From an uncultured delta proteobacterium (GTDB lineage: Bacteria; Desulfobacterota; Binatia; UBA9968), in the NCBI GenBank assembly GCA_963727625.1, contig CAVSHR010000004.1, positions 1,216,001-1,280,000 of the forward strand: a stretch of 64,000 nt of DNA. Direction: 5' to 3'. A program made the position numbers and the translations under genes. Positions within the stretch are counted from its first letter, which is position 1, and each line of letters starts with the position of its first letter. Below are positions 47,731 through 57,756 of the stretch, one piece after another. The notes under the pieces are model-generated. The model was not told the DNA's origin, made no database searches, and worked only from the letters and a program-made list of their open reading frames with translations.

Positions 47731-48156
47731 ATGGGAAGCGCGCCGGCAAAGCTCACCAACGTCACCTCGTACCGCGTGATCTATGGCGACACCGACCAGA
47801 TGGGCGTAGTCTATTACGCCAACTATTTGCGCTGGTTCGAAAGGGGCCGCTCGGAGTTTCTGCGCCAGATCGGTTTACCCTATTCAATCGTCGAACGTCA
47901 GGGCGTGCACTTTCCTGTGCTGGAAGTGACCTGTTGTTACACGCAATCCGCCCGCTACGACGACTTGATCGAAATCGCTACCGATTTGGCGGGGATTGGG
48001 CGCGCCTCTTTAACATTCAACTATCGCATCTCGCGCCCGGCTGATCAGTGCATCTTGGCCACCGGAGCCACCAAGCATGCGTCGCTCGATAGCTCGGGCA
48101 GGATCGTGCGAATACCCAAGATCTTGGTCGATGCCATTAGCGCCGCTGGTGGTTGA
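47731..48156 (+). CDS. Acyl-CoA thioesterase, YbgC/4HBT family
   Basis: RVIYGDTDQMGVVYYANYLRWFERGR signature. Confidence 0.92.
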   Translation: MGSAPAKLTNVTSYRVIYGDTDQMGVVYYANYLRWFERGRSEFLRQIGLPYSIVERQGVHFPVLEVTCCYTQSARYDDLIEIATDLAGIGRASLTFNYRISRPADQCILATGATKHASLDSSGRIVRIPKILVDAISAAGG

Positions 48157-48165
48157 GCCGGCAGA

Positions 48166-49332
48166 TTAGCGCAAGTCCCCCGCCGTTGCCACGCTGATCG
48201 CGCCATTGATTTCATCTTGAACTTCGCCGTTGACTTCGACCCGCAATCGCCTTTGGAGTGCGTCGAGCATCGAGCGCAAGCCGATCTGTCCCAGGGCCCA
48301 AGCCGCGTGCCCGCGCACCAAAGGCTCGTCGTCATCGAGCGCGCGAATCAACGCCGCCTCGGCTTCCACGGACTTGAGATTGCCGAGAGCCACCGCGACG
48401 TTGCGCAGTAGTCCCCGCCGTTTCGCACGGAGAATCGCGCTGCCGCGGAAGCGCCGGCGAAACTCCTCCGAAGTAAGGGCTAAAAGCCCGATCAACTCGG
48501 GCGCGTGCAAACCGGCTCTCGGCTGGAATGCAGTTTCGGCGCTGGCCGGAGCTTTTACGTTGTACGGGCAAACTTCCTGGCAAATGTCGCAGCCGAAAAT
48601 ATGATTGCCGATCAGCGGCCTTAGATGCAGCGGAATCGAACCTTTTAATTCGATGGTCAGATAGGAGATGCAACGCCGCGCATCGAGCAGGTAGGGTCCG
48701 ATGAACGCGCCGGTCGGACAGGCCTTCAGGCAAAGCTCACAGCGACCGCACCGATCACGGACCGGCCGGTCATAGACGAGCGGCAGGTCGAGAAATAACT
48801 CACCCAGAAAAAACCATGAGCCGCGGCGCGGCGAAATTAGATGTGTGTTCTTACCAATCCAGCCGAGCCCGGCAACACCAGCCAGATCCCTTTCCAATAC
48901 CGGACCGGAATCGACGAATGCGCGCCCTTGCACCGGTCCGCCATGCAATTTTGTGATGTGATCGAGCAACTCATCGAGCCGGCGCCTAATCAAATCGTGA
49001 TAGTCATCGCCCCAGGCATAGCGCGAGATCCAACCGCTCGATCCGCCGCTTGGATCGGGACGTGGTAACGGCTTGTAATAATTCATGCCGACCGAAACCA
49101 CGGAGGCGGCCCAGGGCACCAAGATTTTTGGATCGCGCCGGAGCATCTCGGTCCGTTTCATGTAAGCCAACTCGCCGGCCAGCCCCCGGCGCAGCCAGCG
49201 CGCGAAGGATTCCTCGTGCGCCGGCAGCTGCACCGCCGAGATACCGACCAGCTCGAAGCCCAACCCTTCAGCCGTTTCCTTGATGCGCCGAGACAGCTTG
49301 GCAACGACCTGCTCAGGGAAATGGTTCATCAC
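48166..49332 (-). CDS. queG: Epoxyqueuosine reductase
   Basis: SRYAWGDDYH, FVDSGPVLER, CGRCELCLKACPT, RCISYLTIE and GCDICQEVCP motifs; C-terminal HEAT repeats. Confidence 0.96.
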   Translation of the reverse strand: MMNHFPEQVVAKLSRRIKETAEGLGFELVGISAVQLPAHEESFARWLRRGLAGELAYMKRTEMLRRDPKILVPWAASVVSVGMNYYKPLPRPDPSGGSSGWISRYAWGDDYHDLIRRRLDELLDHITKLHGGPVQGRAFVDSGPVLERDLAGVAGLGWIGKNTHLISPRRGSWFFLGELFLDLPLVYDRPVRDRCGRCELCLKACPTGAFIGPYLLDARRCISYLTIELKGSIPLHLRPLIGNHIFGCDICQEVCPYNVKAPASAETAFQPRAGLHAPELIGLLALTSEEFRRRFRGSAILRAKRRGLLRNVAVALGNLKSVEAEAALIRALDDDEPLVRGHAAWALGQIGLRSMLDALQRRLRVEVNGEVQDEINGAISVATAGDLR

Positions 49333-49414
49333 CGAATTCTATTTGCCCTTTTACCGATCGACAAGCACAGGCCCGGCTCGTAGCACCGCGATTTCGCCAC
49401 GGCCAAGGACCGAA

Positions 49415-49864
49415 TTAATGATAGGAGACGTTGTCGTCAGGATCGGAGTCTTCACCATCAAGCAGCGGTTTACGCCCGGCGAAACCGTCTTCGATGCGAT
49501 GCCAAAAACTCACGGTCGGTTCGCCGATCTGCCAACAAAGAAAAACCACCTCGGTGCCGAGCATGCAGGGAAAGTCGATCAACCCCTGCTCCACGCCCTT
49601 GCACACACAGCCATAGGCGTTGACTTCGTCGACCCAGCCGGTGACCTGTCCGATGAGTTTGGCGATCTCGCCGTCCTCGCGAAGCCGGTTCATGAGATTG
49701 GGCGCCTCGGGGTCGAGATGCTCTCTGCGGATCGTCGTTTCACTGGTGCTCTTCAAGCGCCGAACATTTTCGAGAATCTGTTCGACGAGCGGGCGCAGCT
49801 TGGGCAACAATGCGTTGGCTTCGTTGACGGTAAAAAGCCGCGGGTAATTAGGCGAAAAAACCAT
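49415..49864 (-). CDS. DUF2203 family protein
   Basis: FTVNEANALLP, GLIDFP, LCWQIGE and WHRIEDGFAGRKPL motifs. Confidence 0.88.
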   Translation of the reverse strand: MVFSPNYPRLFTVNEANALLPKLRPLVEQILENVRRLKSTSETTIRREHLDPEAPNLMNRLREDGEIAKLIGQVTGWVDEVNAYGCVCKGVEQGLIDFPCMLGTEVVFLCWQIGEPTVSFWHRIEDGFAGRKPLLDGEDSDPDDNVSYH

Positions 49865-49925
49865 GAGCAGATGCTTCCATCCAGTGAATCTTTAATTCGC
49901 GCCGTCTTTTTTCGACCCGCCGCCG

Positions 49926-51224
49926 TTACAGATTCATACCGCTGCGAATCTGCTTGAGCAAGGCGATGTTATCCGAGTGGCCGGTCATACAGGCTGAAAT
50001 CGCGCCGCGGAGCGGCCGGCCGAGCAGATAGAAATCGCCCAAAATATCCAAAATTTTATGGCGCGCGAGTTCATTGGCGAAGCGCAAATCCGTATTGATG
50101 ATTTTATCGTCGCCGATGATGATGCAATTGTTGAGCTTGCCGCCGCCCGCCAAGCCCATGGTTTGCAGTTTTTCGATATCGCGCATGAACCCGAAGGTGC
50201 GCGCCGGGGCAATTTCCGCTTTGAAAAAATCCAGCCCTTGGAACTGGTAGGTGTGCTCTTGTTCGCCCACCGGCTCGGGATAGCGCAACAAATAATGCAC
50301 CGAAAAAGATTCCGCCGGCGCGATGCTGATCGACTCGCCGTTCTTGGTGTGGATTTCGTACGGTTGGTCAATGACGATCTCGGTACATTGTTCGGACTGC
50401 TCCTCGATACCGGCTTCTTCGATCGCCTGACAAAACTCGATCGCCGACCCGTCCATGATTGGCACTTCGCCTTGGACCTTCACGAGCAAATTAGTGATCC
50501 CATAACTGTGCAGCGCGGCGAGAAAATGCTCCACGGTCCCCACGGCAAAACCCTTGGAACGCAACGAGGTTGCGTAGCCGGTTGAGCCGACGTAATCAAG
50601 GTGCGCCGGCAGCGTCACGTCGCCGGAAATTCCGGTAAACAAAACGCCGCGATTGGCCGGTAGCGGATGGAGAATCAAGCCGGTTTTGACACCCGAGTGA
50701 AGCCCCTGTCCGGAGAGCACCACGCTTTTTTTCAGGGTCTTCTGTTTGATCGCCTGCGAGGCCGCGCCGTCTCTCGGCGCCGCCGTCTTTGTTGGCCGGC
50801 CTTTGCGCGTCCCGTTCGCCGGTTTTTTATGCGCTTCAGTTCCCGGCATCGGGCCGAGAGCGCGCTGCACCGTGAGCAAAAGACCCTCCAGCGAAACCGG
50901 CTTTTCGATGAAGTCAAAAGCGCCGAACTTGGTGGCGGTCACAGCGGTGTGAATATTGCCATGCCCCGAAACCATCACGACGTTGATCGCCGGTTCTTCG
51001 GTTTTAATCTCCCTGAGTAAGCCGATGCCGTCCACCTGGGGCATCCAGATATCCAGCAAAACCAATTCCGGTTTCTCTTGCTTGATCATCTCCAGCACGC
51101 GGGTGCCGTCGGCCGTATCGACGACCCGGTAACCTTCGTCGGTCAAGACCTCGCGCACCGATTCGCGCACGCCGTCTTCGTCGTCGACGACTAGAATCGT
51201 TTTTTGCGTAATCAATTCTTCCAC
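49926..51224 (-). CDS. lpxC: Response-regulator receiver domain fused to UDP-3-O-acyl-GlcNAc deacetylase (REC-LpxC)
   Basis: aa about 8-123 are REC (VVDDE, LLD58IWMP, S86GHG, FIEK108P); aa about 160-432 are LpxC (QKTL, GLHSG, TVEH, EVPIMDGSA, APARTFGF, HKILD, GH); single ORF, GTG after GGAGG. Confidence 0.93.
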   Translation of the reverse strand: MEELITQKTILVVDDEDGVRESVREVLTDEGYRVVDTADGTRVLEMIKQEKPELVLLDIWMPQVDGIGLLREIKTEEPAINVVMVSGHGNIHTAVTATKFGAFDFIEKPVSLEGLLLTVQRALGPMPGTEAHKKPANGTRKGRPTKTAAPRDGAASQAIKQKTLKKSVVLSGQGLHSGVKTGLILHPLPANRGVLFTGISGDVTLPAHLDYVGSTGYATSLRSKGFAVGTVEHFLAALHSYGITNLLVKVQGEVPIMDGSAIEFCQAIEEAGIEEQSEQCTEIVIDQPYEIHTKNGESISIAPAESFSVHYLLRYPEPVGEQEHTYQFQGLDFFKAEIAPARTFGFMRDIEKLQTMGLAGGGKLNNCIIIGDDKIINTDLRFANELARHKILDILGDFYLLGRPLRGAISACMTGHSDNIALLKQIRSGMNL

Positions 51225-51245
51225 TCATCCTCCTGGGAAATCGGT

Positions 51246-53477
51246 CTAAAAAATTGCCGCCTTCTGGGCGATCTCATCGACGCTGGCGTCAGCGCCCACT
51301 GGAAATTCAACGGTAAAGCGGGTCCCCCTCGGCTCGTTGGGCCAAGCGCGGATGTAACCGCGATGGTCTTCGATGATTTGACTGACGATCGTCAGGCCCA
51401 GACCCGTGCCGTTCTCCTTGGTGGAAAAATACGGTTCAAATATTTTTGTCCGGATCTCCTGCGGCAAACCGCAACCGTCGTCGGCCACTTCCAGCGTTAC
51501 AACGCCGCGCGCCGGGTCATAGACCGTCGCCAGCTTGATCTCGCCTTGGCCTCTAACCGCCGCCACCCCGTTGTCCAATAGGTTGATCAACACACGCTTG
51601 ATTTGATCCCGGTCCAATTCAAGGGGCGGGATCGGCCCGGCGCGAAAATGGAAGTGAATGCCGTGATGGGCTTCTTTAAACAACACCAGAGCGTCCCGGA
51701 CAATCTCGTTGAGGTCGTTCGGCGCAAGCTGTGCCGACGGCAAGCGGGCAAACTGGGAAAATTCATTGACAAGATTTTTGAGCTCATCGACTTGCTGGAT
51801 AATCGTGCTCGTGCACTTGTCCAGGATCGCGCCGTCGCCTTCGAGCATTTTGGCGTAGCGTTTACGCAGCCGCTCCGCTGATAATTGGATCGGCGTCAGC
51901 GGATTTTTGATTTCGTGGGCGATGCGCCGGGCCACCTCTCGCCAGGCTTCCATGCGCTGGACCTTTTGAATTTGCGTGATGTCGTCGACAAACAACATCA
52001 CGCCCAAAATCGCGCCATCGTCGTCGCGTAGCGTGGCCGCGCTGACCAAAAGAGTTAGCAAGCGGTCCAACAGCGAGAGCTTGATCTCCTTCTCAACGGT
52101 TTCTCGCTCCACCACGCTGTCAACAATCTCGCGAATCTCGCGCAGCGCTTCGGCGCGAAAAACCTCGCGATAATTTTTTCCCAGCGCGTGATCGGCTTGC
52201 ACCGAGAGAATTTGCTCGGCGGCCTTATTCCAGGTGGTAATTTTGCCCGCCGGATCGACGGATACGACCCCTGCCGCAATATTGGCAAGCAGCGTTTCCA
52301 CCACCTTGCCGCGTCGCTCGAGTTCCAGCTTGATCTGCTTGAGATCACCGGTCATATGGTTAAACGAGTTCATCAGCACGCCGATTTCGTCGTCGCGGCC
52401 CGACTCGATCTTGTAATCCCAGTTTCCCTGCGCCACCTCGTGTGTGCCTTCCGCCAGCTTCTGGATCGGCACGGTAATGCCCTTTGAGAGATAGATGCCG
52501 CACCAAGTCGCCGCGAAGATGATCACCAATGTCATCAACAGCATCGTCAGAATATAGCTGTTTTTGACCGGCGTCTTGAGAAAAGTCAGATACTTGTACT
52601 GCTCGTAGGATTGTGAAATCTGCAGTGCCTGTTTGGAAATGCTCTTCGGCACGTAGTCATCGACCACCACGACGCCGCGAATGCGTCTATCGCGGTCATA
52701 GAGCGGCACGCCGCTGCGGATCACATCGCCGTCGCCGAAAACTTCCGTGCGTGTCACTTCCAGACCACGCAGTGCCCGGTCGAGAAATTCCGCTTCCGGC
52801 TTGATGACCTCGCCGGTCGGTACTTGCCGGTTAAACGCGACCACTAAGGCTTTACCGTTAGGCAAGAACACCTCTACGGTGCCGAGGTTATACTCACGCT
52901 GTTTGGCTTGAAGGAATTCTTTCAGCGCTGCCGTGCGTTGGGGATCGAAGAGACCATCGTCGGTAATCCGTTGGCTCAACTGTCGGGCATAGAAAATCGC
53001 GTTATTTGCCGAGTTTTGATAATAGGTCTGACCTATTTCCAACGAGCCCTGCAGCGCGCTTTCAACTTTGGAATCGAACCACCGGTCGAAAGACCGAGTC
53101 AACAAGCCGCCCGCGATAGCGAACAGCAGAACGCTCGGCACCAAGGAAAGCGAAACGAAAGCTAAAACCAAGCGCACTTGCAGGCGCGAACCGAGAATAC
53201 GCTGTTTGCGTTCGACGATCAGCTTGATCAAATTGCGCACAACGAGAAAAACCAGCAGACCGAGAAGAATAATATTGACGTTGATCAACAGGAAGAAAAT
53301 GATATTGCTGCCGGTGGAATTTTCCGGCGACACGTCGGGCAACTGAACTTCGAAATAAATGAGCGTGGCGACCATCAACGCGGTGACCAGGATGACGATC
53401 GCTTCGCGTTTGCGGCGCTTGCTTTCCTCCCGTTTGAGAGTCTCTTCGACGAACGTGGCGGAATTTGAGTTTGGCAT
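51246..53477 (-). CDS. NtrY-like sensor histidine kinase (TM, periplasmic sensor, HAMP, PAS, HisKA, HATPase)
   Basis: GSRLQVRL...WFD N-terminus, [36 protein letters not shown]-box, NLLDN, DDGCG and GTGLGL. Confidence 0.93.
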
Positions 53478-53518
53478 CGGCTATCCGGCGCTAAGGGCCT
53501 GGAAAATTTAGGAAAAGT

Positions 53519-53731
53519 CTACCTTCTAAAGAAGTAAAGGACAAGCGACACGATGACGCTGATCAAGATGCAAGTGGCAATTGGAAAATAAAAGGAATAG
53601 CGGCCGCGCTGGATCCCAATATCGCCTGGCAGATCGCCGAGCCAGGGCAGCTTGCCGGCGAGCGAAAAAATCACACCGACAACCACCAAGAACAGTCCAA
53701 GGTAAATAAGAGTCTTGCCGAATCCAGCCAT
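53519..53731 (-). CDS. DUF2905 family membrane protein
   Basis: LGDLPGDI...FYFPIATC signature, two TM segments. Confidence 0.9.
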   Translation of the reverse strand: MAGFGKTLIYLGLFLVVVGVIFSLAGKLPWLGDLPGDIGIQRGRYSFYFPIATCILISVIVSLVLYFFRR

Positions 53732-53784
53732 ATAACTAGGCTTTAAATGGAATGAATCGCCATGGTTTCGCGTGCCAAACGCAT

Positions 53785-54810
53785 CTAGAACAACGTCGGT
53801 TGTTTTCTCGGTGCGCCGCCCGCCGAAACGTTTGATTCGCGACCGAAATGATCGAAGGCCAGCCTGGTGGCGACCCGGCCGCGCGGCGTCCTCTGGATGA
53901 ACCCGGCTTGGATGAGAAAGGGCTCATAAACATCTTCGATGGTGTCCTTTTCCTCACCGATTGCCGCGGCCAGGGTCTCTACCCCGACCGGTCCGCCGGC
54001 GAACTTGTCGATCAGGGTGAGCAATAACATCGTGTCCATTTTGTCCAGCCCGAGCCGGTCGACTTCAAGCATCTGTAGCGCTTGATCGGTCACCGCTTTG
54101 GTGATCGTGCCGTCGCTTTTGACCTGAGCGTAGTCGCGCACGCGGCGCAGCAAGCGATTGGCAATGCGCGGTGTGCCGCGCGCGCGCGACGCGATCTCCG
54201 CGATGCCATCGTTTTGCTCGCGCACGCCGAGAATCGCCGCGGAGCGCTTGAGGATTAGAGACAGCGCCGCGCTGTCGTAAAAATCCAGACGATGAATATG
54301 GCCGAAACGATCGCGCAACGGAGAGGTTAAGAGTCCTGAACGGGTCGTAGCGCCGATGAGAGTGAATTTTTTTAACTCCAATTTGATCGATCGCGCCGCG
54401 GGCCCCTGGCCGACCATGATGTCGATCTGGTAGTCCTCCATCGCCGGATAGAGCACTTCTTCCACCACATGGTTCAAGCGGTGAATTTCATCGATAAAAA
54501 GAATATCGCCTTCTTCGAGATTGGTCAGCAGCGCCGCCAGGTCACCGGGGCGCTCCACCACCGGACCGGAAGTTGCCCTGATGTTCACGCCCATTTCACG
54601 CGCGATGATGTACGCCAACGAGGTTTTCCCGAGCCCCGGCGGCCCGTGAAACAAAATATGATCGAGCACGTCGCCGCGCTTACGCGCCGCGGCGATCGCG
54701 ACCTTGAGAATGGCCTTGACCTGCTCCTGGCCGACATACTCATCGAACGCGCGCGGGCGAAGGTTGACCTCGTAAGTTAGATCTTCTTCAGTTTTATTGC
54801 CGGTCAGCAT
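53785..54810 (-). CDS. ruvB: Holliday junction branch migration helicase RuvB
   Basis: [23 protein letters not shown] and RGTPR motifs. Confidence 0.98.
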
Positions 54811-54844
54811 GGGAATAAGGTCGGCACGAATTCGGCCAAGCGCG

Positions 54845-55438
54845 CTACGGGCTCATGCGCCGCAGCGCTTCTTTCAAAACGTTTTCCAGTGAACTCTCGC
54901 CCCGCTTGAGCACTTCGCCGACCCTCTGTTCAGCCTCAGTTCTTTTATACCCCAGATTGACCAGCGCCGAAACCGCATCCAGCATCAGCTGCGACCCGCC
55001 GTCCTGCTTTGCGCTCGCCGGCGCGGCCGGAGCCAGCGTGGCAAGTTTATCCTTGAGCTCGACGATCATGCGCTCGGCAAGCTTCCTGCCCACGCCGGGT
55101 ATCGCCACCAAGCGAACCTGATCACCTTCTTTTAAAGCCCGAGCTAATTCTTCCACCGCAATACCAGATAGAATATTGACTGCGAGCCTTGGACCGATTC
55201 CCGAGACACTGAGCAGCAGCAAAAAGAGCTGTTTTTCGCCCGGATCTTGAAAGCCAAAAAGCTGAATCGCGTCCTCGCGCACATGGGTGAAAATTTGCAG
55301 GCTCACCGAAGCCCCGACTTCAGGCAACCGATAAAACACGTTGAGCGGGATGAACACCTGATAGCCCACGCCGCCGACGTCGACAATGATTTCGCCGGGA
55401 ATCTTTTGGGCTAATCTGCCGCTGATTTGCGCAATCAC
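54845..55438 (-). CDS. ruvA: Holliday junction branch migration protein RuvA
   Basis: [30 protein letters not shown] and ALVNLGY motifs; start moved to GTG 55438. Confidence 0.96.
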
Positions 55439-55481
55439 GTTGACATCAAAAAAGGCAACGAAACGGCGCTCCGGGGAAGGC

Positions 55482-56075
55482 TCACCGCCGGGAAGCCGTT
55501 TCGCGATAGTTGCGCCAACTGGCCGCCTTAGCGCTACCGGGCAACGACCGCACCAGTAGGTTGTCAAATTTACGCCGGTGGATATGGCAGATCGCTGCCG
55601 CCAGAGCGTCGGCGGCGTCCGCGCGCAGCGCACCGCGCAAACATAACAGCGCGCTCACCATTTTTTGCACCTGCGCCTTGGTCGCCTGACCGTAACCGAC
55701 CACCGCCACCTTGATTTCCGCCGCCGAATACTCAGCGACGTCTATTTGATTTTCCGCCGCCGCCAGCAAGGCCACGCCGCGCGCTTGGCCGAGCTTCAGG
55801 GCGCTTTGCACGTTGCGGGAAAAAAATACTTTTTCCAGGCTCACCGCCGTGGGTTGACAGTGTTCGATGATCTCCCGCAGACCGCGATAAATCCCGCTTA
55901 AGCGTTCCGCAATGCCGAGCGACGCGGGCGCAGCGATGGTTCCATGGGAGTGGCAATGAAGCTGATTCGCGTTGACTTCGACCAAGCCCCAGCCGGTGAC
56001 AAGGGAGCCCGGGTCGATACCGAGAATGATTTCGCGATGGAGCCGCCTGGCGCTGCTCTTTAGCGTCGGCGTCAC
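55482..56075 (-). CDS. ruvC: Crossover junction endodeoxyribonuclease RuvC
   Basis: ILGIDPG, LGQARG and DAADALAAAICH motifs. Confidence 0.96.
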   Translation of the reverse strand: MTPTLKSSARRLHREIILGIDPGSLVTGWGLVEVNANQLHCHSHGTIAAPASLGIAERLSGIYRGLREIIEHCQPTAVSLEKVFFSRNVQSALKLGQARGVALLAAAENQIDVAEYSAAEIKVAVVGYGQATKAQVQKMVSALLCLRGALRADAADALAAAICHIHRRKFDNLLVRSLPGSAKAASWRNYRETASRR

Positions 56076-56079
56076 TTGT

Positions 56080-56826
56080 TCAACTCGCCTTCTCCATCAA
56101 TTCGGTGGGAATATTGAAGTTCGCAGAAACGCTTTGCACGTCGTCGTGGTCTTCGAGCTCTTCGGTAAGCTTCAAAATCTGCTCGACATGCTTGGCGTCG
56201 ACATCGACCGTGTTCTTCGGCACGAGAGTCACCTGGGCATTGGCCGCGGCAATTTTTTCCTGATCCAGGCGGTCTTTAACCGCGGCGAAATCTTCCGGCG
56301 CGGTGACGACTTCGAACATATCGTCCTCTTCGCGGACATCCTCGGCGCCGGCTTCTAGAACGATTGCCATCAGCCGCTCTTCGTCGACCTGCGATTTCTC
56401 GACCGTGATCAGTCCCTTGTTATCGAACATCCAGGCGACGCAACCGGTCTCGCCCATGTTGCCGCCATGTTTGGTAAAGAGCCGGCGAATTTCCGAAACC
56501 GTGCGATTCTTGTTGTCGGTTACAACCTGCGCGATGATCGCCGCGCCGCCCGGCCCATAGCCTTCGTACTGAATTTCTTCATAGGTAACCCCTTCAAGCT
56601 CGCCCGTACCTTTCTTAATTGCCCGCTCGATATTATCGTTCGGCATGCTGTTGCTGCGCGCCGCCAGCACCGCCGTGCGCAAGCGCGGGTTGGCATTGAT
56701 ATCGCCGCCGCCCATGCGCGCCGCAACGGTAATTTCTTTTATGAGCTTGGTGAAGACCTTGCCCTTTTTTGCATCCTTGGCAGCCTTCTTATGCTTGATC
56801 GTGCTCCACTTCGAATGACCGGACAT
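56080..56826 (-). CDS. yebC: YebC/PmpR family protein
   Basis: [22 protein letters not shown] and LEDHDDVQ motifs. Confidence 0.96.
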
Positions 56827-57099
56827 AACTTAAACCTTCCCTTTGAATTCGCTGGTAAAGTAACACAAACGACTTGCCGGGTAAACCATGTGCAGACTCC
56901 ATTACCCCTTATCCACACGACTGAAACAATCACCAGCCGTGCCTGCGATCGCGGTCGACGCACGCCGGGTTTTATCATGCAAAAATAAATGACTGCGATT
57001 GAATGGTGCAGTTTACTTTTTTCTCGCCGCGTTTTTCGCTATACTTCGGCCACGATGGGCTGTGTAATCACGTCACGCATGACTCCCGTCGGCTCTCCA

Positions 57100-57756
57100 A
57101 TGCCGTCGCGTCTTAAGCACGCGCCTCTGTTTTTTATGCTCTTGCTGATTCTGGGTTGTTCGATACCACCGAGCAAGGTTCGAGTCCCGGAGCGGTATAC
57201 AGCTCAGTTAAGCCAAACCGGAATCGCCTCTTGGTATGGCCCGGGATTCCACGGCAAAGCCACCGCCAGTGGCGATATTTATAATCAGAACGATCTGACC
57301 GCAGCGCACCAAACCCTGCCGCTCGGCACCCGTGTCATGGTCACGAACCTGGAAAACGGCCGTGCCGCCGAAGTGACCATCAACGACCGCGGTCCTTTCG
57401 CGAAAAGCCGTATCATCGATCTCTCCTATTCAGCGGCGCAATCACTCGATATGGTCGGACCCGGCACAGCGTTGGTTCGCGTCGACGTGATCGATAGTCC
57501 GACCAAGATTCAAACCATCCGTTCTTCTCTCGATTACACGCTGCAACTGGGTTCTTTCGCGCAACTCGAAAACGCCCAGCAGCTGCGCAATCGCCTGGCA
57601 AAATCATTCCGCGACGTGGTGATCGCGCCGTTACTGTCCAAAGACGCCACCTACTACCGGGTGCACTTGGGAAAATTTGCCAGCCGCTCGGATGCCGAAG
57701 AGCAGGCACGGCAGGTGTCCCAAGCCGGCTATTCGGTCATCATCATGGAGCAGTAG
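57100..57756 (+). CDS. rlpA: Septal ring lytic transglycosylase RlpA family (DPBB plus SPOR)
   Basis: Lipobox ILGC; ASWYG, TAAHQTLP, INDRGP and IDLS motifs; SPOR domain (LQLGSF); start uncertain. Confidence 0.92.
   Translation: MPSRLKHAPLFFMLLLILGCSIPPSKVRVPERYTAQLSQTGIASWYGPGFHGKATASGDIYNQNDLTAAHQTLPLGTRVMVTNLENGRAAEVTINDRGPFAKSRIIDLSYSAAQSLDMVGPGTALVRVDVIDSPTKIQTIRSSLDYTLQLGSFAQLENAQQLRNRLAKSFRDVVIAPLLSKDATYYRVHLGKFASRSDAEEQARQVSQAGYSVIIMEQ

Follow-up and report, generated by a model that had tools for sequence, protein, structure and literature searches.

The stretch analysed here, referred to as the window, comprises 64,000 nucleotides from the genome of an uncultured delta proteobacterium and encodes a 432-amino acid protein in which a CheY-like receiver domain (REC) is fused to LpxC, the deacetylase acting at the committed step in the making of lipid A. 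The gene lies directly behind that of an NtrY-type sensor histidine kinase. Based on the comparisons described below, we consider it likely that a two-component system dedicated to lpxC has been rewired from transcriptional to direct post-translational control, in which the phosphorylation of residue D58 of the receiver would set the output of LpxC.

An earlier note on this DNA had read a single frame at 49926-51224 as a complete CheY-like receiver, a basic linker of about 35 residues rich in Lys, Pro, Ala and Thr, and a full LpxC, with the protein terminating right after the last LpxC helix. This description is borne out in all its parts (Table 1). The frame is unbroken over exactly this interval and runs on the minus strand, which the note had left unstated; the receiver residues D14-D15, D58, S86 and K108 as well as the LpxC residues E232-H233, H389-K390-D393 and H416 are found where the note had put them, and the linker (residues 120-160) measures 41 amino acids, among them 9 Lys/Arg, 5 Pro, 8 Ala and 4 Thr. 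In Pfam searches, the protein scores 107.9 bits with the Response_reg family PF00072 (cut-off 30.2) and 278.2 bits with PF03331 (cut-off 27), with profile positions 1-266 of 268 covered by the latter match. It also exceeds the cut-off of the NCBIfam lpxC equivalog TIGR00325 (252.5 versus 187.25 bits), the match stopping at profile position 272 of 297. The top NCBIfam match of the receiver is the NtrX receiver. As a whole, the protein falls short of the NtrX equivalog NF051870, of which only profile positions 3-120 are matched with 131.8 bits versus a cut-off of 600 bits, and Pfam detects neither an AAA+ nor a helix-turn-helix (HTH) domain in it; without an AAA+ domain, it does not belong to the sigma54 activators either. 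The length of the linker differs among relatives, and in some of them HTH or AAA+ remnants occupy its position.

Table 1. Features of the window in and around the REC-LpxC fusion gene (positions are those of the window)
Feature	Position	Strand	Remarks
REC-LpxC fusion gene	49926..51224	minus	432 amino acids, GTG start, TAA stop included; only LpxC of the genome
Receiver (REC) domain, residues 10-119	50868..51197	minus	Pfam PF00072, E 3.9e-31; D14/D15, D58, S86, K108-P109
Codon of phospho-acceptor D58	51051-51053	minus	within the receiver
Basic Lys/Arg/Pro/Ala-rich linker, residues 120-160	50745..50867	minus	predicted disordered, from model confidence (pLDDT)
LpxC deacetylase domain, residues 161-426	49947..50744	minus	PF03331, E 9.6e-83; E232, H233, T343, H389, K390, D393, D397, H416
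Shine-Dalgarno sequence AGGAGG	51229..51234	minus	4 nt 5' of the GTG, in the 21 bp separating the kinase stop codon from the fusion gene
NtrY-type sensor histidine kinase, 743 amino acids	51246..53477	minus	Pfam NtrY_N, HAMP, PAS, HisKA, HATPase_c
DUF2203 gene	49415-49864	minus	61 bp downstream of the fusion
queG, tRNA epoxyqueuosine reductase	48166-49332	minus	after the DUF2203 gene
ruvB-ruvA-ruvC-yebC cluster	53785-56826	minus	directly upstream of the kinase
RlpA-like lytic transglycosylase, cell-envelope gene	56989-57756	plus	DPBB_1 and SPOR domains
Open reading frame of 456 amino acids	57793-59163	plus	after the RlpA-like gene; no Pfam family at E <= 1e-4

An AlphaFold2 model of the protein, computed with an alignment of 57 sequences, has a mean predicted local distance difference test score (pLDDT) of 86.9 and a predicted template modelling score of 0.80. 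The modelled receiver is a (beta-alpha)5 fold of five strand-helix units, from strand 9-13 and helix 17-29 to strand 104-107 and helix 112-123, and residues 126-152, with a pLDDT below 50, are predicted to be disordered. The C-terminal part adopts the two-domain beta-alpha-alpha-beta fold of LpxC in the model, and Foldseek comparisons with solved LpxC structures gave target-normalised template modelling scores of 0.84-0.95 and, for most of them, root mean square deviations of 1.4-2.2 Å. The last LpxC helix spans residues 416-430 and is followed by the stop codon two residues later. The best solved sequence relative of the C-terminal part is LpxC of P. aeruginosa (E 4.5e-51), with which the LpxC motifs of the fusion align, and those of the N-terminal part are the Brucella NtrX receiver structures 4d6x (E 6e-28) and 5m7n. 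A complex prediction for the LpxC domain (residues 155-432) and the receiver (residues 1-125) resulted in a score of 0.01 (mark 0.32), which counts neither way on docking.

REC-LpxC fusions were aligned in sets of 18 and 57 sequences, reaching down to 31% identity. In the alignment of 57 sequences, the receiver residues D15, W60, D65, G66, S86, K108 and P109 and the LpxC residues E232, H233, H389, K390, D393, D397 and H416 are invariant, and D14 and T343 are each kept in at least 90% of the fusions. Of the LpxC residues, we take H233, H389 and D393 to be the zinc ligands and the Glu, His, Thr, Lys and Asp residues to be catalytic, following the roles given in the LpxC literature. The phospho-acceptor D58 is present in 56/57 fusions, the exception being protein P0143 with an Asn residue, and its AAA+-containing sister P0151, a REC-AAA-LpxC protein, has a Ser residue at this position. 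Both members of this sister pair have lost the acceptor Asp and kept the LpxC catalytic residues, and thereby resemble pseudo-receiver variants. From the conservation of the residues in the receiver pocket and the LpxC site, we therefore conclude that both active sites are under purifying selection, save in this one subclade.

The window genome (6.6 Mb in 15 contigs, 98.45% complete, 6.3% contamination) contains one LpxC according to a PF03331 profile search, which is the fusion; a second, stand-alone lpxC, whose possible presence the earlier note had raised, was not found by this search. Two lpxA-class matches lie above the TIGR01852 cut-off (contig C4, 434833-435594, and contig C9, 5568-6323), and one of them is adjoined by lpxD-like frames, so that the lipid A pathway is present. 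The genome hence has duplicated first-step acyltransferases beside a single receiver-fused LpxC. Being the sole LpxC of a nearly complete genome with lipid A genes, the fusion must, on this genomic reasoning, be its working LpxC, and this points indirectly to a deacetylase function. An LpxC under FtsH/LapB control of the E. coli type would have a C-terminal degron tail and an accompanying LapB orthologue. Here, the fusion lacks a C-terminal tail, and the best match of the LapB model NF008757 in the window genome reaches 47.3 bits versus a cut-off of 363; the FtsH/LapB system, to which the earlier note had compared the protein, thus serves as a contrast. A candidate match to the LapB zinc ribbon was rejected, since it belongs to a RadA-like protein.

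The fusion is old and is found in several phyla. The earlier note had reckoned with an artefact or a recent accident, in which case relatives would lack the fusion; instead, in a collection of 5.8 billion proteins, 120/120 of the best listed clusters (75-100% identity), stemming from many independent assemblies, contain both PF00072 and PF03331, and at the level of 50%-identity clusters, dozens with a full-length fusion extend to identities as low as 34-37%. Where these proteins have a public product name, it is only 'UDP-3-O-acyl-N-acetylglucosamine deacetylase', so the receiver is invisible in annotations. The closest named relatives are labelled uncultured Syntrophobacter/Syntrophobacteraceae (77% and 71% identity); other fusions are labelled Deltaproteobacteria, Candidatus Binatia/Binataceae and Thermodesulfovibrionia (Nitrospirota), metagenome-assembled genomes (MAGs) labelled Nitrospirota, Binatota and Nitrospinota carry the fusion, and the Acidobacteriota are represented by Holophagae, Thermoanaerobaculia, Aminicenantes and Terriglobia. 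An AAA+-containing form is labelled Nitrospinaceae and Desulfomonile. The taxon labels of near-identical fusion proteins conflict with each other (Binatia, Verrucomicrobiae, Syntrophobacter). One cultured isolate, Desulfopila sp. IMCC35006 (locus L061, genome G201), carries the fusion.

Among 201 genomes of the same phylum, including the window genome, 48 encode a fusion-type LpxC (E <= 1.2e-85). The match extends across both domains in one stretch in 26 of these and covers mainly LpxC in the other 22, where it lies inside open frames of 450-840 amino acids. Eleven of the 22 were inspected and all 11 have an N-terminal receiver, followed in six by a Sigma54_activat AAA+ and an AAA_lid_14 domain and in five by a long linker only; the remaining 11 are counted as fusions from their frame length alone. 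PF03331 is present in 191/201 genomes with a single match in 188/191 (the exceptions are G034, G074 and G199), so that genomes with the fusion only very rarely have a further LpxC. A full-length fusion was found in 9/101 sampled Acidobacteriota genomes. Five genomes outside the phylum sample were searched with PF03331, and the fusion is the sole LpxC in the MAGs labelled Holophagales, Thermodesulfovibrionia and 'bacterium'. Desulfopila sp. IMCC35006 has a stand-alone LpxC besides the fusion, and a further, partial match is present in one Holophagae MAG. In G034 and G199, a stand-alone LpxC adjoins the NtrY-type kinase and the fusion is also present; these two genomes and G201, which have both forms of LpxC, may represent intermediate or dual-control states.

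The kinase gene ends with a TAG stop codon 21 bp before the start of the fusion gene on the same strand. The protein has hydrophobic stretches at residues 24-46, 54-89, 99-127 and 304-331, and the loop of about 175 amino acids between the third and the fourth would be located in the periplasm. Its H-box is intact (H521), and we infer that the kinase is the phosphodonor for D58. It is the sole NtrY_N match in the window genome, although the Pfam model is weak and gives this very kinase only 40 bits. No protein of the window genome exceeds the NtrX cut-off, and at least 16 NtrC-family regulators are encoded elsewhere in the genome. A full-length homologue of the kinase (38-50% identity over residues ~15-730) is encoded in 186/201 genomes of the phylum sample and in all 48 fusion genomes, and it is located directly upstream of the fusion in 13 of these 48, among the matches listed, and in 14 of 38 named loci from several phyla. 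Three 99-100% complete genomes of one genus, G079, G146 and G177, have no LpxC match and no kinase homologue at E <= 1e-60, whereas G041, a relative from the same family, has both; the pattern resembles a co-loss of lipid A synthesis and kinase in a single lineage.

To place the fusions among other LpxC proteins, a FastTree tree of 186 LpxC domains was used, taken from the full-coverage rows of the best 150 representatives of a 50%-identity library and from 80 named loci. It is a quick tree with rows biased toward relatives of the query, and it leaves out shorter fragments and the unnamed loci L003-L025. One branch with a Shimodaira-Hasegawa-like support of 98 splits 86 fusion-side rows from 100 stand-alone LpxCs, which suggests that the LpxC part of the fusions has one origin. 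The 86 rows consist of 53 REC-LpxC, 21 REC-AAA-LpxC, 5 AAA-LpxC proteins, which look N-terminally truncated, and 7 LpxC-only rows; 79 rows are thus fused, and the 7 LpxC-only rows are mostly fragments and probably truncated, with L054 among them having a receiver. Forms with and without AAA+ are interleaved on the tree with 12-14 changes, as in the sister pairs P0137/P0144 and P0143/P0151, which we read as repeated loss of the AAA+ module. Taken together, the fused forms make up a deletion series of REC-AAA+-HTH-LpxC, REC-HTH-LpxC and REC-LpxC. Two REC-AAA-LpxC proteins score above the Pfam cut-off for HTH_8, as does P0137, which has the order REC-HTH_8-LpxC without AAA+, and full-length Brucella NtrX can be aligned with one REC-AAA-LpxC protein over NtrX chain positions 6-454. 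In the fused AAA+ forms, GAFTGA and the Walker B glutamate are found in 0/21 and Walker A in 19/21. NtrX, too, is not known to contain GAFTGA.

The likely source of the receiver became apparent from genomes in which kinase and lpxC are neighbours. The linkage counts combine two coordinate lists and are lower bounds. In at least 40 genomes, the kinase is preceded on its own strand, at a distance of no more than 1.4 kb, by a stand-alone lpxC, and at least 38 of these genomes lack the fusion, the other two being G034 and G199. Ten kinase loci were inspected. All seven that come from non-fusion genomes have a REC-AAA+ regulator of 450-477 amino acids behind the kinase, and lpxC is just upstream of the kinase in 6 of the 7. 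All seven regulators have GAFTGA or GSFTGA together with the Walker B motif 'FLDEI' and are canonical sigma54 activators; HTH_8 was found in both that were scanned with Pfam. A sigma54 -24/-12 element is located 45-80 bp upstream of the coding start of the stand-alone lpxC in 5/7 loci, and only one or two such elements are found at the same threshold on both strands of these 6-9 kb loci. Around the fusion itself, no sigma54-like element was detected in the 307 bp that separate ruvB from the kinase or in the 400 bp upstream of the kinase, and a promoter and terminator scan of 48000-54000 gave no signal beyond that expected from shuffled sequence. In the fusion genomes G053 and G124, in which the kinase is unlinked, and in G034, where lpxC precedes the kinase, there is no regulator behind the kinase. 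The receiver of one unfused regulator (L130) has the fusion receiver as its best match in the window genome (128.8 bits, 50% identity; next match 86.9 bits), and the two are reciprocal best matches. Five other fusion genomes were compared in this way, and the fusion receiver is the top match in all of them but G034. Reciprocal best matches were used for the ancestry of the receiver because the receiver tree is poorly resolved. These observations support the idea that a kinase/regulator pair, found in synteny with lpxC across the phylum, gave rise to the fusion.

Systems of this kind have been described in Desulfovibrio, members of the same broad lineage, in which a kinase and an NtrC-family regulator are dedicated to lpxC. 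For D. vulgaris, the available portion of the work of Rajeev et al. (2011, PMC3333781) names lpxC as the single target of the regulator DVU2934, which shares an operon with the kinase DVU2931, and places lpxC directly upstream of the orthologous operon in S. fumaroxidans. DVU2934 is listed with GAFTGA and with the target DVU2917 in the part available of Kazakov et al. (2015, PMC4641369). For D. alaskensis G20, the accessible text of Kuehl et al. (2014, PMC4045070) describes that the kinase Dde_3000 acts on the sigma54 regulator Dde_3003, whose only target is lpxC with its sigma54 promoter, that lpxC is strongly up-regulated in the kinase mutant and that the kinase lowers the activity of the regulator in laboratory growth. 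The unfused relatives described here match Desulfovibrio in layout, with lpxC behind a sigma54-like promoter, a kinase, and a regulator containing GAFTGA. However, the Desulfovibrio systems act on transcription via sigma54, whereas the fusion has receiver and enzyme in one covalent chain, and the parts for sigma54 activation are degenerate or gone. A second point of reference is NtrY/NtrX of alphaproteobacteria (Rhodobacter sphaeroides, Caulobacter, Brucella), whose kinase shares the NtrY_N, HAMP and PAS domains and whose NtrX provides the best NCBIfam and PDB matches of the receiver. NtrYX affects lpxC transcripts in alphaproteobacteria, as far as the available portions of PMC7240162 and PMC12444477 go, and Lemmer et al. 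(2020, PMC7240162, in part) found an 8.8-fold higher level of lpxC mRNA in a R. sphaeroides ntrYX mutant and no upstream NtrX site. NtrX differs in that it is a DNA-binding protein with a large regulon and an indirect effect on lpxC, whereas the window protein has neither AAA+ nor HTH.

Based on these data, we propose that in the ancestor an NtrY-type envelope sensor controlled the transcription of lpxC via a sigma54 activator, in a module of lpxC with a sigma54 promoter, kinase and regulator. In one ancestor, the regulator gene would have been fused in frame to lpxC, possibly by way of a tandem duplication of the lpxC-kinase-regulator cluster that put lpxC behind the regulator. Sigma54 activation would then have become pointless, the GAFTGA loop and the ATPase glutamate would have been lost, and AAA+ and HTH would have been deleted repeatedly, with the receiver always being kept. 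In the present-day system, the membrane-bound NtrY-type kinase would sense an envelope or periplasmic cue and phosphorylate D58, the phosphorylation state of which would set the LpxC output post-translationally and hence the lipid A flux. That both the receiver phospho-chemistry and the kinase were retained speaks for a signal now directed at the enzyme itself. The phosphotransfer from kinase to D58 and an effect of it on the enzyme, of either sign, are what we would expect from the sequences. In CheB, PleD, WspR and RpfG, phosphorylation relieves inhibition or drives dimerisation. For the fusion, the likely mode would be phospho-dependent dimerisation of the receiver or its docking on and undocking from the catalytic domain; dimerisation or reversible docking is favoured because the tether is flexible and variable. 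The suggestion of the earlier note that lipopolysaccharide flux may be set by two-component phosphorylation is favoured by all comparative tests available and can be considered supported at the level of sequence. One might go further and see in the fusion an ancient single-purpose envelope circuit short-circuited by joining regulator and target, with REC-AAA+-HTH-LpxC, REC-HTH-LpxC and REC-LpxC as living intermediates; to this wider view we would give an even chance.

Several observations weigh against control by phosphorylation of D58 and against the descent proposed for it. The linker is disordered and variable in length and provides no rigid coupling element between receiver and active site. 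The acceptor Asp is replaced by Asn or Ser in the small P0143/P0151 subclade, and at least some members therefore function without phosphorylation. In 35 of the 48 sampled fusion genomes, the fusion has no kinase next to it, and the same applies to every Acidobacteriota locus inspected; of five genomes with such an orphan fusion, only two yielded an NtrY_N kinase at another site with the weak Pfam model. In the receiver tree, a quick search on 139 columns, other NtrC-family receivers of the genome nest near the fusions, and the unfused module is a putative orthologue of DVU2931/DVU2934 and Dde_3000/Dde_3003. A sequencing-run search listed one soil-metagenome DNA run (word share 0.05) and no RNA run. 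Finally, related genomes are not independent, so that the counts overstate the number of separate observations.

Some of these points would also fit a vestigial or structural receiver, that is, a fusion arising as a neutral by-product of joining adjacent genes, with an LpxC that is constitutive or regulated otherwise, by transcription or proteolysis. The variable linker without an obvious coupling element, the lost acceptor and the unlinked kinase are all in line with it, and the decay of the AAA+ and HTH parts of the same ancestral regulator after the fusion indicates that parts of the protein are dispensable. However, REC is kept in 79/79 fused rows across several phyla, whereas AAA+ and HTH were lost repeatedly, and the pocket residues remain invariant or nearly so at the lowest identities aligned, implying selection on the phospho-chemistry. 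In addition, no fusion genome of the phylum sample lacks the kinase (48/48), and in genomes whose kinase lacks a neighbouring regulator, the best-matching receiver is that of the fusion. We thus regard a vestigial receiver as improbable. Alternatively, phosphorylation could control the amount of LpxC rather than catalysis, with the receiver acting as a phospho-gated degron or adaptor module or directing the protein to the membrane by binding the kinase. It is LpxC abundance that is regulated in E. coli, according to the available part of a 2025 review (PMC12444477), and the fusion has no C-terminal tail, its TIGR00325 match ending at position 272 of 297. Moreover, strong LapB-like proteins (E <= 1e-74) are encoded in 45/201 genomes of the phylum and in 1/48 fusion genomes, namely G034, which also has a stand-alone LpxC, and the best LapB match in the window genome, at 47 bits, is far from the cut-off of 363. 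On the other hand, there is no direct support for a protease or adaptor, weaker TPR (tetratricopeptide repeat) proteins of about 460 amino acids matching the whole LapB model are found in several fusion families, and the complementary distribution of LapB and fusion follows clades and may merely reflect phylogeny. We consider control of the amount unlikely too, if by a shade less so than a vestigial receiver; it would in any case be a sub-mechanism of phospho-control and not an alternative to it. Practically no weight is given to an assembly or frameshift artefact, by which a single-domain regulator and lpxC would have been wrongly joined. No support for it was found beyond the multi-contig assembly with its estimated contamination; the frame is uninterrupted, and the fusion recurs in all of the nearest listed clusters, in dozens of 50%-identity clusters, in MAGs and in the isolate Desulfopila sp. 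IMCC35006. Chance or misassembly is excluded by the independent assemblies.

The fusion shares its design with response regulators such as CheB (methylesterase), PleD and WspR (GGDEF) and RpfG (HD-GYP), which also have an N-terminal receiver, a flexible linker and a C-terminal catalytic domain. Whereas the outputs of these proteins are signalling enzymes, the output here would be an essential biosynthetic enzyme at a committed step. Post-translational control at LpxC, the flux-setting step, would be shared with the proteolysis by FtsH/LapB/YejM in E. coli and the activation by MurA in P. aeruginosa (PMC12444477, available portion). Unlike in these systems, there is no degron tail and no LapB above the cut-off in the genome, and control would be exerted in cis by the receiver. 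A natural fusion of LpxC with FabZ is known from Bacteroidota/Chlorobi (PMC516016; NCBIfam NF009667), but its partner is a C-terminal enzyme of a neighbouring pathway step, whereas here a signalling domain is N-terminal; the window protein scores 217 bits with NF009667 against a cut-off of 465. The review of lipid A regulation covers FtsH/LapB, MurA, Lon, NtrYX/ChvGI and Ght in its available part, and its text contains 0 occurrences of 'receiver', 'fusion' and 'fused' (PMC12444477). Full-text literature searches under several names, with response-regulator censuses and supplements outside their coverage, found no description of the fusion architecture, in agreement with the earlier note, which knew of no characterised example. 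We therefore found the architecture, its origin and its breadth not to be described in the searchable literature, while response regulators with enzymatic outputs and the regulation of LpxC are already known kinds.

LpxC is essential, controls the flux of lipid A synthesis and ranks among the major antibiotic targets, and its control outside Enterobacteria and Pseudomonas is an acknowledged gap, with proteolysis, MurA activation and a few transcriptional effects listed in the review (PMC12444477, available part). If our proposal holds true, the fusion would represent the first direct two-component phospho-control of the LpxC step and a rare response regulator with an essential biosynthetic enzyme as output. 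It could also serve as a 'Rosetta stone' that ties a widespread NtrY-type kinase to lipid A homeostasis, making the NtrY-like signal and role testable, and the series of intermediates would be an unusually complete natural record of a circuit shifting from transcriptional to post-translational control. The hypothesis is directly testable, given a carrier in culture (Desulfopila sp. IMCC35006) and a simple assay in vitro.

The genes surrounding the fusion and its kinase are listed in Table 1. The order fusion-DUF2203-queG is absent from the more distant fusion loci and kept in L027, the closest relative with enough flanking sequence.

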